From: Escherichia coli | GTDB lineage: Bacteria > Pseudomonadota > Gammaproteobacteria > Enterobacterales > Enterobacteriaceae | NCBI RefSeq assembly: GCF_003334255.1 | Contig: NZ_QOWU01000054.1 | Length of the DNA stretch: 39,423 nucleotides | Direction: 5' to 3' (one strand) | Shown here: positions 3,440-39,423 of the stretch, piece after piece | Numbering within the stretch: the first letter of the stretch is position 1 | How the letters are laid out: each line of letters opens with the position of its first letter | The notes under the pieces: generated by a model | The model's database searches: none | Told to the model about the DNA's origin: nothing | Seen by the model: only the letters and a program-made list of their open reading frames with translations | Program-made: the position numbers and the translations under genes

Positions 3440-3619
3440 AACAACATTCATACTGAAATTGAATTTTTTTCACTCACTATTTTATTTTTAAAAAACAACA
3501 ATTTATATTGAAATTATTAAACGCATCATAAAAATCGGCCAAAAAATATCTTGTACTATTTACAAAACCTATGGTAACTCTTTAGGCATTCCTTCGAACA
3601 AGATGCAAGAAAAGACAAA
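3440..3619 (+). promoter_or_regulatory. ilvLXGMEDA promoter/leader region: AT-rich upstream tract with candidate promoter hexamers TTGTAC (3551-3556) and TATGGT (3570-3575)
   Basis: Very AT-rich bendable sequence immediately upstream of the leader peptide ORF; the two hexamers are only 13 nt apart so exact promoter assignment is uncertain. Confidence 0.4.
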
Positions 3620-3703
3620 ATGACAGCCCTTCTACGAGTGATTAGCCTGGTGGTGATTATTATCCCACCGTGCGGGGCTGCACTTGGACGAGGAAAGGCT
3701 TAG
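3620..3703 (+). CDS. ilvL: ilv operon leader peptide, 27 aa MTALLRVISLVVIIIPPCGAALGRGKA, rich in Leu/Val/Ile regulatory codons
   Basis: Direct translation of atgacagcccttctacgagtgattagcctggtggtgattattatcccaccgtgcggggctgcacttggacgaggaaaggcttag; followed by attenuator hairpin. Confidence 0.85.
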   Translation: MTALLRVISLVVIIIPPCGAALGRGKA

Positions 3704-3726
3704 AGATCAAGCCTTAACGAACTAAG

Positions 3727-3759
3727 ACCCCCGCACCGAAAGGTCCGGGGGTTTTTTTT
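3727..3759 (+). terminator. ilv attenuator (Rho-independent terminator of the leader transcript)
   Basis: CCCCCGCACC-GAAA-GGTCCGGGGG stem-loop followed by T8. Confidence 0.8.
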
Positions 3760-3789
3760 GACCTTAAAAACATAACCGAGGAGCAGACA

Positions 3790-3840
3790 ATGAATAACAG
3801 CACAAAATTCTGTTTCTCAAGATTCAGGACGGGGAACTAA
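3790..3840 (+). CDS. ilvX: Small ORF, 16 aa [16 protein letters not shown], between attenuator and ilvG
   Basis: ATG preceded by GAGGAG Shine-Dalgarno; stop 2 nt before ilvG start; matches remembered ilvX small protein. Confidence 0.5.
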
Positions 3841-3842
3841 CT

Positions 3843-5489
3843 ATGAATGGCGCACAGTGGGTGGTACATGCGTTGCGGGCACAGGGTGTGAACACCGTTT
3901 TCGGTTATCCGGGTGGCGCAATTATGCCGGTTTACGATGCATTGTATGACGGCGGCGTGGAGCACTTGCTATGCCGACATGAGCAGGGTGCGGCAATGGC
4001 GGCTATCGGTTATGCTCGTGCTACCGGCAAAACTGGCGTATGTATCGCCACGTCTGGTCCGGGCGCAACCAACCTGATAACCGGGCTTGCGGACGCACTG
4101 TTAGATTCCATCCCTGTTGTTGCCATCACCGGTCAAGTGTCCGCACCGTTTATCGGCACTGACGCATTTCAGGAAGTGGATGTCCTGGGATTGTCGTTAG
4201 CCTGTACCAAGCACAGCTTTCTGGTGCAGTCGCTGGAAGAGTTGCCGCGCATCATGGCTGAAGCATTCGACGTTGCCTGCTCAGGTCGTCCTGGTCCGGT
4301 TCTGGTCGATATCCCAAAAGATATCCAGTTAGCCAGCGGTGACCTGGAACCGTGGTTCACCACCGTTGAAAACGAAGTGACTTTCCCACATGCCGAAGTT
4401 GAGCAAGCGCGCCAGATGCTGGCAAAAGCGCAAAAACCGATGCTGTACGTTGGCGGTGGCGTGGGTATGGCGCAGGCAGTTCCGGCTTTGCGTGAATTTC
4501 TCGCTGCCACAAAAATGCCTGCCACCTGTACGCTGAAAGGGCTGGGCGCAGTAGAAGCAGATTATCCGTACTATCTGGGCATGCTGGGGATGCACGGCAC
4601 CAAAGCGGCAAACTTCGCGGTGCAGGAGTGTGACCTGCTGATCGCCGTGGGCGCACGTTTTGATGACCGGGTGACCGGCAAACTGAACACCTTCGCGCCA
4701 CACGCCAGTGTTATCCATATGGATATCGACCCGGCAGAAATGAACAAGCTGCGTCAGGCACATGTGGCATTACAAGGTGATTTAAATGCTCTGTTACCAG
4801 CATTACAGCAGCCGTTAAATATCAATGACTGGCAGCAACACTGCGCGCAGCTGCGTGATGAACATTCCTGGCGTTACGACCATCCCGGTGACGCTATCTA
4901 CGCGCCGTTGTTGTTAAAACAACTGTCGGATCGTAAACCTGCGGATTGCGTCGTGACCACAGATGTGGGGCAGCACCAGATGTGGGCTGCGCAGCACATC
5001 GCCCACACTCGCCCGGAAAATTTCATCACCTCCAGCGGTTTAGGTACCATGGGTTTTGGTTTACCGGCGGCGGTTGGCGCACAAGTCGCGCGACCGAACG
5101 ATACCGTTGTCTGTATCTCCGGTGACGGCTCTTTCATGATGAATGTGCAAGAGCTGGGCACCGTAAAACGCAAGCAGTTACCGTTGAAAATCGTCTTACT
5201 CGATAACCAACGGTTAGGGATGGTTCGACAATGGCAGCAACTGTTTTTTCAGGAACGATACAGCGAAACCACCCTTACTGATAACCCCGATTTCCTCATG
5301 TTAGCCAGCGCCTTCGGCATCCATGGCCAACACATCACCCGGAAAGACCAGGTTGAAGCGGCACTCGACACCATGCTGAACAGTGATGGGCCATACCTGC
5401 TTCATGTCTCAATCGACGAACTTGAGAACGTCTGGCCGCTGGTGCCGCCTGGCGCCAGTAATTCAGAAATGTTGGAGAAATTATCATGA
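3843..5489 (+). CDS. ilvG: Acetolactate synthase II (AHAS II) large subunit, intact 548 aa
   Basis: ORF track 548 aa uninterrupted; thiamine-diphosphate enzyme motifs (e.g. [14 protein letters not shown]); first gene of the ilvGMEDA order. Confidence 0.95.
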
Positions 5490-13296: not shown

Positions 13297-13787
13297 TCAA
13301 TTTATGAGCGATATGGCATTGATTGACTTGATGACCGCCCTCTGTATGTCTGCAACCAACTCATGTGGCAAACATTGATTAAGATACCCTCTGTAAGTCC
13401 TTGCTCTGTTTAATCTGTTTCGACTGACTTGTTGTACCAGGTCGGCTTTGGCCCAACGAATCTGCTGATCAAAGAATTGCAGGTCATTGATAACATTACT
13501 GGCTATTTCAACATGCATTCCACGTTTTAACTTGTCTGGTCGCGAGTGGTTGATAATGGAACGACGATGCATGCGTTGCCATTAATTTTTCCGTTGAGCA
13601 CGACAACTAACCTGTTTTTTATCATTTCAGGAGGAATGCGGCCATCGTAATACGTCGTGCTGAACGGTCCATTTTGGCTAACAGGATAGTTACCAAAGTT
13701 GCATTCCAGTATTTCACCAACCTTAGGGCTGAAATTAATCGCCACGAGTAAACCTCTCCTTAGTAAACTCTGAAAAAGTAATAACAC
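13297..13787 (-). pseudogene. yifN: PemK/MazF (Kid)-family toxin-like gene split by a frameshift into two overlapping ORFs
   Basis: ORF track 13527..13787 (86 aa) and 13297..13572 (91 aa) on the same strand in different frames; N-part GEILECNFG...RLVVVLN...CIVVPLSTT and C-part GMHVEIASN...LPHELVADIQRAVIKSI resemble the two halves of Kid/MazF. Confidence 0.5.
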
Positions 13788-18915: not shown

Positions 18916-19045
18916 AGTGTGGTAGAATATCAGCTTACTATTGCTTTACGAAAGCGTATCCGGTGAAATAAAGTCAACCTTTAGTTGGTTAATGTTACAC
19001 CAACAACGAAACCAACACGCCAGGCTTATTCCTGTGGAGTTATAT

Positions 19046-19375
19046 ATGAGCGATAAAATTATTCACCTGACTGACGACAGTTTTGACACGGATGTACTCA
19101 AAGCGGACGGGGCGATCCTCGTCGATTTCTGGGCAGAGTGGTGCGGTCCGTGCAAAATGATCGCCCCGATTCTGGATGAAATCGCTGACGAATATCAGGG
19201 CAAACTGACCGTTGCAAAACTGAACATCGATCAAAACCCTGGCACTGCGCCGAAATATGGCATCCGTGGTATCCCGACTCTGCTGCTGTTCAAAAACGGT
19301 GAAGTGGCGGCAACCAAAGTGGGTGCACTGTCTAAAGGTCAGTTGAAAGAGTTCCTCGACGCTAACCTGGCGTAA
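19046..19375 (+). CDS. trxA: Thioredoxin 1, 109 aa
   Basis: ORF track frame 18941..19375; start set at [41 protein letters not shown] (WCGPC active site). Confidence 0.95.
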
Positions 19376-35659: not shown

Positions 35660-35736
<77 letters not shown>

Positions 35737-35793
35737 TTTAGTCCCGGCGCTTGAGCTGCGGTGGTAGTAATACCGCGTAACAAGATTTGTAGT

Positions 35794-35870
35794 GGTGGCT
35801 ATAGCTCAGTTGGTAGAGCCCTGGATTGTGATTCCAGTTGTCGTGGGTTCGAATCCCATTAGCCACCCCA
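35794..35870 (+). tRNA. hisR: tRNA-His (anticodon GTG), 77 nt including the extra 5' G(-1)
   Basis: GGTGGCTATAGCTCAGTTGGTAGAGCCCTGGATTGTGATTCCAGTTGTCGTGGGTTCGAATCCCATTAGCCACCCCA. Confidence 0.95.
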
Positions 35871-35890
35871 TTATTAGAAGTTGTGACAAT

Positions 35891-35977
35891 GCGAAGGTGG
35901 CGGAATTGGTAGACGCGCTAGCTTCAGGTGTTAGTGTCCTTACGGACGTGGGGGTTCAAGTCCCCCCCCTCGCACCA
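35891..35977 (+). tRNA. leuT: tRNA-Leu (anticodon CAG), 87 nt, long variable arm
   Basis: GCGAAGGTGGCGGAATTGGTAGACGCGCTAGCTTCAGGTGTTAGTGTCCTTACGGACGTGGGGGTTCAAGTCCCCCCCCTCGCACCA. Confidence 0.95.
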
Positions 35978-36019
35978 CGACTTTAAAGAATTGAACTAAA
36001 AATTCAAAAAGCAGTATTT

Positions 36020-36096
36020 CGGCGAGTAGCGCAGCTTGGTAGCGCAACTGGTTTGGGACCAGTGGGTCGGAGGTTCGAATCCTCTCTCGCCGACCA
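36020..36096 (+). tRNA. proM: tRNA-Pro (anticodon TGG), 77 nt
   Basis: CGGCGAGTAGCGCAGCTTGGTAGCGCAACTGGTTTGGGACCAGTGGGTCGGAGGTTCGAATCCTCTCTCGCCGACCA. Confidence 0.95.
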
Positions 36097-39344: not shown

Positions 39345-39423
39345 TAGGTGATGCTGCCAACTTACTGATTTAGTGTATGATGGTGTTTTTGAGGTGCTCC
39401 AGTGGCTTCTGTTTCTATCAGCT
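39345..39423 (+). mobile_element. IS1: Left end of insertion sequence IS1 (terminal inverted repeat and start of insA), truncated by the window edge
   Basis: GGTGATGCTGCCAACTTACTGATTTAGTGTATGATGGTGTTTTTGAGGTGCTCCAGTGGCTTCTGTTTCTATCAGCT matches the IS1 IRL-proximal sequence from memory. Confidence 0.8.
39400..39423 (+). CDS. insA: IS1 InsA N-terminus (partial, continues beyond window): V/M-A-S-V-S-I-S
   Basis: GTG GCT TCT GTT TCT ATC AGC reads MASVSIS, the remembered InsA N-terminus; only 8 codons are inside the window. Confidence 0.5.

Follow-up and report, generated by a model that had tools for sequence, protein, structure and literature searches.

Among multivalent control systems that act through the ribosome, the ilvGMEDA attenuator is a classic model. 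In the Escherichia coli contig analysed here, a stretch of 39,423 nt that is referred to as the window, the leader ORF in front of this operon appeared to be five codons short. The locus raises the questions of what this short leader is, how it arose and whether it would still regulate. An earlier note made from the sequence had described a leader of 27 codons, had given the K-12 leader as 32 aa, and had ascribed the difference to an in-frame 15-bp deletion, while allowing that it might simply be an allelic or an assembly variant.

Translation of the ORF at 3620-3703 (+), which runs from ATG to TAG, gave the 27-aa product MTALLRVISLVVIIIPPCGAALGRGKA, and the K-12 ilvL product (locus L002) was MTALLRVISLVVISVVVIIIPPCGAALGRGKA, an exact match to the 32-aa leader given in the note. 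In a three-way DNA alignment, the window leader was separated from K-12 by a single clean 15-nt gap with all other bases identical, in agreement with the proposed deletion; at the peptide level the gap is equivalent to the loss of Ile-Ser-Val-Val-Val. The Val codons decreased from six in the wild type to three in the window and the Ile codons from five to four, with Leu remaining at four, which confirmed by count that fewer Val and Ile codons are read before the hairpins. Leu, Val and Ile still make up 11 of the 27 codons, which fits a short ORF rich in codons for the end products of the pathway.

The NCBIfam profile NF007744 matched the 27-aa peptide with E = 2e-15 and 56 bits, residues 1-27 aligning to profile positions 1-32. 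This score is 3 bits below the equivalog cut-off of 59 bits, because of the five-residue gap (the wild type scores 81.9), and the cut-off is an annotation threshold rather than a biological criterion. The 27-residue alleles generally scored 56-58 bits (the 27- and 37-residue forms are covered by entries P0016, P0017, P0020 and P0022 of the protein collection), and their NCBI product name differs from that of the 32- and 37-residue forms, probably because the score lies under the cut-off. Canonical IlvL peptides are 31-33 residues long, 20 of which precede PPCG; the window peptide departs from this length in having only 15 there. The gene order in the window is yifB - ilvL - ilvX - ilvGMEDA, as in the annotated E. 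coli locus. Based on this synteny, the near-identity to K-12 and the end-to-end profile match, the feature is ilvL. For annotation, a form that falls just under the profile cut-off, is too short for many gene callers and is skipped by tools set to a minimum of 30-40 aa is easily missed.

Downstream of the leader, the small ORF ilvX (3790-3840, +; 16 codons) was unchanged, as judged from the sequence and the annotation of an identical stretch. The first structural gene under the attenuator, ilvG (3843-5489, +), was found from its ORF and annotation to be intact, encoding 548 aa, unlike the K-12 ilvG, which is a frameshifted pseudogene. The attenuator therefore controls a functional acetolactate synthase II. 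At the sequence level, the features of an attenuator present in the window were the leader ORF rich in regulatory codons and an intrinsic terminator between this ORF and the first structural gene.

To locate the origin of the gap, the wild-type leader was examined for repeats. Tandem Repeats Finder, run on K-12, returned an array of period 15 and 2.5 copies, with units GTGATTAGCCTGGTC, GTGATTAGCGTGGTG and GTGATTATT coding for VISLV, VISVV and VII. The array is ~37 nt long and its units differ at 2 of the 15 positions. According to this result and the alignments, what is left of it in the window (3638-3661, +) is a hybrid unit, GTGATTAGCCTGGTG, followed by the partial unit GTGATTATT. The hybrid takes its 5' end from unit 1 and its 3' end from unit 2. 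The junction reads GATTAGCC followed directly by TGGTGGTG, with 15 nt absent. From the alignments, with the gap placed after 3647, the lost 15 nt correspond to CGTGATTAGCGTGGT or an equivalent register, and the junction falls in a TGGT microhomology at 3648-3651 (+). Since the C at unit position 10 (unit 1) and the G at position 15 (unit 2) were both kept, the crossover lies between them, within the common TGGT. The earlier suggestion of slippage between short GTGGTGATTA-like repeats thus came close: the wild type does hold a period-15 array of 2.5 copies, with the junction in TGGT. The most likely cause would be slipped-strand mispairing in the course of replication, units 1 and 2 having crossed over in the 4-nt TGGT that they share. 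The event would then be a recent, spontaneous one-unit contraction of the 15-nt tandem repeat within the regulatory-codon block.

The age of the contraction was judged from the nearest complete genome, that of strain G6/7, which was isolated in Germany from the faeces of a healthy human. Over 39,346 nt, the two differed by four SNPs and one indel, the 15-nt gap. The other closest genomes showed a span of 20,015 nt for a 20,000-nt query, that is, they carry the extra 15 nt. With only four SNPs and this single indel relative to G6/7, and the closest genomes being longer, the contraction is private and recent. Outside the leader, the stretch between rep and ppiC (~13297-13745, -) is annotated in G6/7 (L129, 25784-26232) as a frameshifted pseudogene of a PemK/MazF-family toxin; as no differences between the window and G6/7 were found there, the same pseudogene is presumably present. 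Rfam placed the trxA 5'UTR thermometer RF02773 at 18976-19075, two tRNA genes (170-327; Asp and Trp according to the G6/7 annotation) beside the 5S rRNA gene, and a cluster of four tRNA genes at 35660-36093 (Arg-His-Leu-Pro according to the same annotation); all of these are standard features, and none was unusual.

Positions 1-115 start inside a 5S rRNA gene, and the last 77 nt (39347-39423) are an IS1 end, 100% identical to IS1A copies, of which E. coli genomes have a median of 10. Repeats thus delimit the window on both sides, and it is probably an entire contig of a draft assembly. The IS1 end sits 54 nt upstream of aslA, where G6/7 has unrelated sequence, and the strain probably carries an IS1 insertion upstream of aslA that is missing from its nearest relative.

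As a draft contig that begins within a 5S rRNA gene and ends in IS1, the window probably comes from short-read assembly, and no indel other than the 15-nt gap separated it from the nearest genome. Both points would be in keeping with an artefact, the strain truly having 32 codons and the gap having been introduced by the assembler or by read errors. However, a collapse is not expected in an array that is far shorter than a read or k-mer and whose units can be told apart at 2 of 15 positions, and the missing stretch amounts to exactly one in-frame unit. Independent deposits of the identical peptide come from 31 contigs, three other alleles with one unit more or fewer are known, and the complete genome of isolate 131 bears a 27-codon allele. 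Because of the short array with differing units, the exact in-frame unit gap and the repeated independent deposits of the peptide, an artefact is considered very unlikely, and a genuine deletion is the reading adopted below.

To place the allele among E. coli, a 241-nt query across the leader was searched against the complete genomes and matched all 5,426 of them. In 5,425 the match contained a 15-nt gap and fell in the 90-95% identity band, with a span of 253-256 nt among the matches listed, which indicates the standard-length allele. The ungapped match was confined to isolate 131 from Madrid (NZ_OW849064.1, L001), the sole complete E. coli genome with a 27-codon ilvL. Isolate 131 retained the unit GTGATTAGCGTGGTG, with the crossover in the 9-nt GTGATTAGC, and had other SNPs in addition; because of the different junction and these SNPs, its deletion was an independent event. 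No +15-nt allele was present in the 5,426 complete genomes.

A wider sample was assembled with a pattern located downstream of the repeat in the conserved core. It retrieved 120 species-representative loci (L003-L122), 118 with a readable ORF, and by its design excluded species with divergent leaders. The genera covered included Escherichia, Citrobacter, Enterobacter, Klebsiella, Serratia, Yersinia, Dickeya, Pectobacterium, Photorhabdus, Proteus, Providencia, Morganella, Hafnia, Edwardsiella and Budvicia. Exactly 20 residues preceded PPCG in 117 of the 118 species and 19 in the remaining one (L105, one codon fewer), and the 27-codon form was found in none of these Enterobacterales representatives. 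Neither deletion junction was seen in any metagenome contig, compared to at least 100 contigs with the wild-type two-unit sequence. The possibility that the 27-codon form is the common wild-type allele was thereby rejected, at one in 5,426 complete E. coli genomes, none of 118 species and zero versus at least 100 metagenome contigs.

In the NCBI protein records, the identical 27-aa peptide is held as a MULTISPECIES 'IlvGEDA operon leader peptide' from 31 contigs, including Salmonella Paratyphi B, which bears out the cautious remark in the earlier note that this might simply be an allelic variant. The other 27-aa junction type (...VISVVVIII..., P0017), found in E. coli isolate 131 and in Salmonella, was on 418 contigs. 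Leaders of 37 aa (+15 nt) were also present in the protein collection, as VISLV-VISLV-VISVV on 94 contigs and VISLV-VISVV-VISVV on 38, and in six retrieved E. coli loci unit 1 was cleanly duplicated at the DNA level. The wild-type 32-aa peptide was on at least 1,000 contigs; all these counts mirror sampling and clonal expansion, not independent events. A 22-aa double contraction and several other recombinant peptides were absent from the protein collection. One-unit contractions and expansions, with two junction types each, were thus seen across E. coli, Salmonella and Klebsiella. Judged against established mutational mechanisms, one-unit gains and losses at two alternative microhomologies would be the mark of a short tandem repeat undergoing slipped-strand mispairing or unequal exchange. 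Fixation of a short allele in one lineage could account for the 418 contigs of the other junction type, and would be a poor fit to a mildly deleterious allele. A full-text literature search found no paper describing natural ilvL length variants. The window allele is not new: it is real, rare and recurrent, and already catalogued in public databases.

The repeated occurrence of the peptide also bears on whether the allele might be laboratory-derived or engineered, for example in a valine or isoleucine production strain or through selection for analogue resistance. Mutations of the ilvL attenuator are classic routes to altered ilv expression. However, the same peptide is present in surveillance genomes, the background is almost identical to that of a faecal isolate from a healthy human, ilvG is in its intact wild-type form, and the terminator, which production strains usually remove or cripple, was untouched. 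A laboratory origin, to which no feature of the data points, is considered extremely unlikely.

To determine whether the switch itself survived, the leader RNA was folded. The protector hairpin was placed by folding at 3645-3673 (+), over the Val-Val-Ile-Ile-Ile-Pro-Pro codons, as GCCUGGUGG-U-GAU/UAUU/AUC-CCACCGUGC; it is predicted to sequester the start of the antiterminator strand, and in the window its stem has a C-U mismatch at the third pair from the base. The wild-type hairpin, over Val-Val-Val-Ile-Ile-Ile-Pro-Pro, was computed at -15.5 kcal/mol versus -15.3 for the window. The putative 5' strand of the antiterminator, GUGCGGGG (3670-3677, +; codons Pro-Cys-Gly), was recognized by its complementarity to CCCCGCAC at 3729-3736, and the resulting duplex was predicted at -17.7 kcal/mol in both wild type and window. 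A small hairpin that holds the ilvL stop codon, GGCUU AGAGAUC AAGCC, was assigned to 3697-3713 (+) from the fold and from covariation.

The same two kinds of evidence placed the intrinsic terminator, the attenuator proper, at 3724-3759 (+), with the stem AAGACCCCCG-C-ACC / GGU-C-CGGGGGUUUU, a GAAA loop and a U tract. The last four stem pairs are drawn from the first U's of a run of eight, leaving the remaining U's after the stem, and the 5' arm at 3729-3736 doubles as the 3' strand of the antiterminator. Its predicted stability was -21.2 kcal/mol in both wild type and window. A simple consensus scan for promoters and terminators detected neither the leader promoter nor a terminator on the + strand; the terminator was missed because of its internal mismatches. 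Transcription would start near 3588, given as an estimate only. The minimum free energy folds of the 27- and 32-codon leaders had the same architecture. The folding proposed in the earlier note thus found the protector, antiterminator and terminator pairings preserved with essentially unchanged predicted stability; the folds show the protector hairpin, antiterminator strand, stop-codon hairpin and terminator all retained in the predicted structure of the 27-codon leader. The only structure lost in the window, the upstream stem UACGA/UCGUG, was considered as a functional element and ruled out, as it is not conserved beyond close E. coli relatives.

The conservation of these elements was assessed in an alignment of 117 sequences, with pairing statistics over 116 of them. 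The protector hairpin was 99.7% paired and almost invariant, and the antiterminator was 99.8% paired with seven of its eight pairs invariant; because the pairings are near-invariant, neither carries covariation information. Compensatory changes were observed in two of nine pairs of the terminator and, across genera, in three of five pairs of the stop-codon hairpin, which from this comparison looks like a conserved element of the attenuator and might act as a pause hairpin or in ribosome release. Third-codon positions were 92-100% conserved in codons 14-17, 21 and 27-32. Those of codons 2-13 were mostly 46-94% conserved, with Ser9 invariant. Within codons 18-26, the search pattern itself had set several third positions, which hence were not counted as evidence. 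Taken together, the alignment suggests RNA-level constraint on the 3' half of the leader, and amino-acid and length constraint on the 5' half. Across Enterobacterales, the nucleotide sequence from codon 14 onward (3659-3703 in the window) was near-invariant, and codons 2-13 varied in sequence with a constant length, L105 excepted.

With these elements in place, the 27-codon leader would still act as a ribosome-mediated attenuator. The sensor would be altered, with half of the valine codons gone and the path of the ribosome to the antiterminator strand five codons shorter. For the 32-codon allele, an increase in read-through under limiting cognate aminoacyl-tRNAs is established (PMC8384417, citing Nargang et al. 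1980). The K-12 ilv attenuator terminates strongly, with a ~45-fold RNA drop between ilvL and ilvG; ribosome pausing in ilvL relieves this termination, and pausing at Pro21-Pro22 raises ilvG ~3-fold (PMC8384417). According to general theory, attenuation is more sensitive the more regulatory codons a leader has and the larger the fraction they make up (PMC1183508).

The two alleles were compared in a ribosome-mask equilibrium model in which only the RNA 3' of the ribosome was folded. A variant allowing pairs across the stalled ribosome was dropped, as it gave an implausible antiterminator around the terminating ribosome. In the model, the antiterminator formed in every allele with any stall upstream of region 2, the antiterminator 5' strand, and the productive stall codons were L3 V6 I3-4 for the wild type compared to L3 V3 I2-3 for the window. 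Stalls at Pro21-Pro22 were called non-productive, the ribosome covering the antiterminator strand, contrary to the published result (PMC8384417), and the model is incomplete in this respect. As these two codons lie 3' of the deletion, the comparison between alleles is unaffected by the misfit.

Because the equilibrium model separates the alleles by codon counts only, three toy kinetic models were added in which the ribosome and RNA polymerase race each other, their parameters lying within the range of Elf & Ehrenberg (PMC1183508); they serve to illustrate and do not stand for measurements. In all three variants the 27-codon allele responded less to moderate valine limitation, and in two of the three it had lower basal read-through. 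In the third variant, where the polymerase is released once the ribosome reaches the hairpin, basal read-through and the Ile response were unchanged and the Leu response was stronger; among the models, this variant fits best the ~45-fold drop in RNA from ilvL to ilvG in K-12. The only prediction robust to the choice of model is that moderate valine limitation would derepress the operon less. The pause position of RNA polymerase would decide whether basal read-through drops or stays the same, and whether the response to leucine stays the same or increases. On this modelling, the shift in set-point that the earlier note had thought possible is plausible.

Isolate 131 (NZ_OW849064.1) has in addition a synonymous CCG to CCA change at Pro22, equivalent to position 3669 of the window, in the overlap between protector and antiterminator. 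This change took the predicted stability of the protector from -15.5 to -18.9 kcal/mol and that of the antiterminator from -17.7 to -14.5. It may be a compensation for the deletion or a coincidence.

A changed valine sensitivity, if the models hold, raises the possibility of adaptive tuning, in which changes of one unit serve as a selectable knob for the branched-chain amino-acid set-point, and selection in the niche of this strain favoured the 27-codon allele. Contractions and expansions do arise repeatedly in E. coli, Salmonella and Klebsiella, both of them through two types of junction, one junction type reaches 418 contigs, and the SNP that accompanies the deletion in isolate 131 tips the helix balance toward termination, as compensation might. 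However, the contig counts possibly reflect outbreak sampling, and the alleles were very rare in every sample. An array of 2.5 units is a poor mutational hotspot compared to true contingency loci, and the 39-kb window gave no other sign of selection, with just four SNPs. The near-invariant leader length in 118 species also indicates purifying selection on length. Adaptive tuning is accordingly regarded as unlikely.

The near-invariance of length in these species, despite recurrent rare variants of one unit more or fewer, suggests selection on length. Because the standard length is held in 117 of 118 species and the recurrent +/-15-nt alleles stay rare, the 27-codon allele is probably a transient polymorphism, neutral or mildly deleterious, and not an adaptation. 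The best explanation overall, held with good confidence, is that the window contains the ilvL of the ilvGMEDA attenuator with a recent, spontaneous one-unit contraction, the switch being retained and the sensor altered.

A more novel proposal, which is quite improbable, is that the ilvL 15-nt repeat is a conserved mutational 'dial' that resets the valine versus leucine/isoleucine response of ilvGMEDA, lineages such as the 418-contig Salmonella clade, the window strain and isolate 131 with its possibly compensating SNP keeping lengths suited to their niches. If true, a textbook attenuator would prove to be a set-point device that can evolve naturally. In itself, the allele is a rare polymorphism of an ordinary kind, with no sign of phenotypic importance. 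The natural alleles with one unit more or fewer offer clean in vivo material on which to test the theory relating sensitivity to the number and fraction of regulatory codons (PMC1183508), and they bear on why leader length stays near-constant across the sampled Enterobacterales.

Among known systems, the Rfam family RF02744 (Rev39_5p_UTR) matched the region of ilvL, attenuator and ilvX (3546-3823) with 135.4 bits against a gathering score of 88. The leader and attenuator of ilv evidently fall within this family, named 'Soft rot Enterobacteriaceae Rev 39 5'UTR', which differs from the window in the ~11-15 nt gap left in the alignment at the deleted unit. Its name and its consensus long-range pairing derive from soft-rot genera, with the attenuation mechanism left undescribed, and it appears to be the ilvGMEDA leader under another name.

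In its exact loss of one unit, junction microhomology and independent recurrence, the ilvL repeat resembles the classic slipped-strand deletions of the lacI-hotspot type and phase-variable loci. Unlike phase-variable repeat loci, it has only 2.5 imperfect units, a very low population frequency and no sign of high-rate reversible switching. Status as a contingency locus was ruled out on the basis of the 2.5 imperfect units and the frequency of length variants (1 of 5,426 complete genomes; 0 versus at least 100 metagenome contigs). The P0017-type 27-aa allele and the 37-aa P0020 and P0022 arose, like the window allele, when the same 15-nt repeat gained or lost one unit, and they share with it their rarity and the retention of the downstream switch. 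In the P0017 type, however, the crossover in the 9-nt repeat changes Leu10 to Val, whereas the crossover in TGGT retains Leu10 in the window.

The closest counterpart is the ilvL of E. coli K-12 and Salmonella, the leader peptide and attenuator of ilvGMEDA (ilvGEDA; NCBIfam NF007744, Pfam PF08046), reportedly described by Lawther & Hatfield in 1980 and by Nargang et al. in 1980. Shared with the window are the locus and its flanks, the promoter-proximal UTR, the start codon, the Leu-Leu block, the Ile-Ile-Ile-Pro-Pro-Cys-Gly block and the stop codon, together with the protector hairpin, antiterminator strand and terminator. The differences are the 32 codons there compared to 27 in the window, one 15-nt repeat unit fewer, and the small upstream stem, present there and gone in the window. 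An altered length of the ilvGMEDA leader coding region is also, judging by its title, the subject of a study by Chen, Harms & Umbarger (1991, J Bacteriol 173:2341, PMC207787), which makes it the most relevant experimental precedent; its length and codon mutants of the leader were engineered, whereas the window allele is natural.
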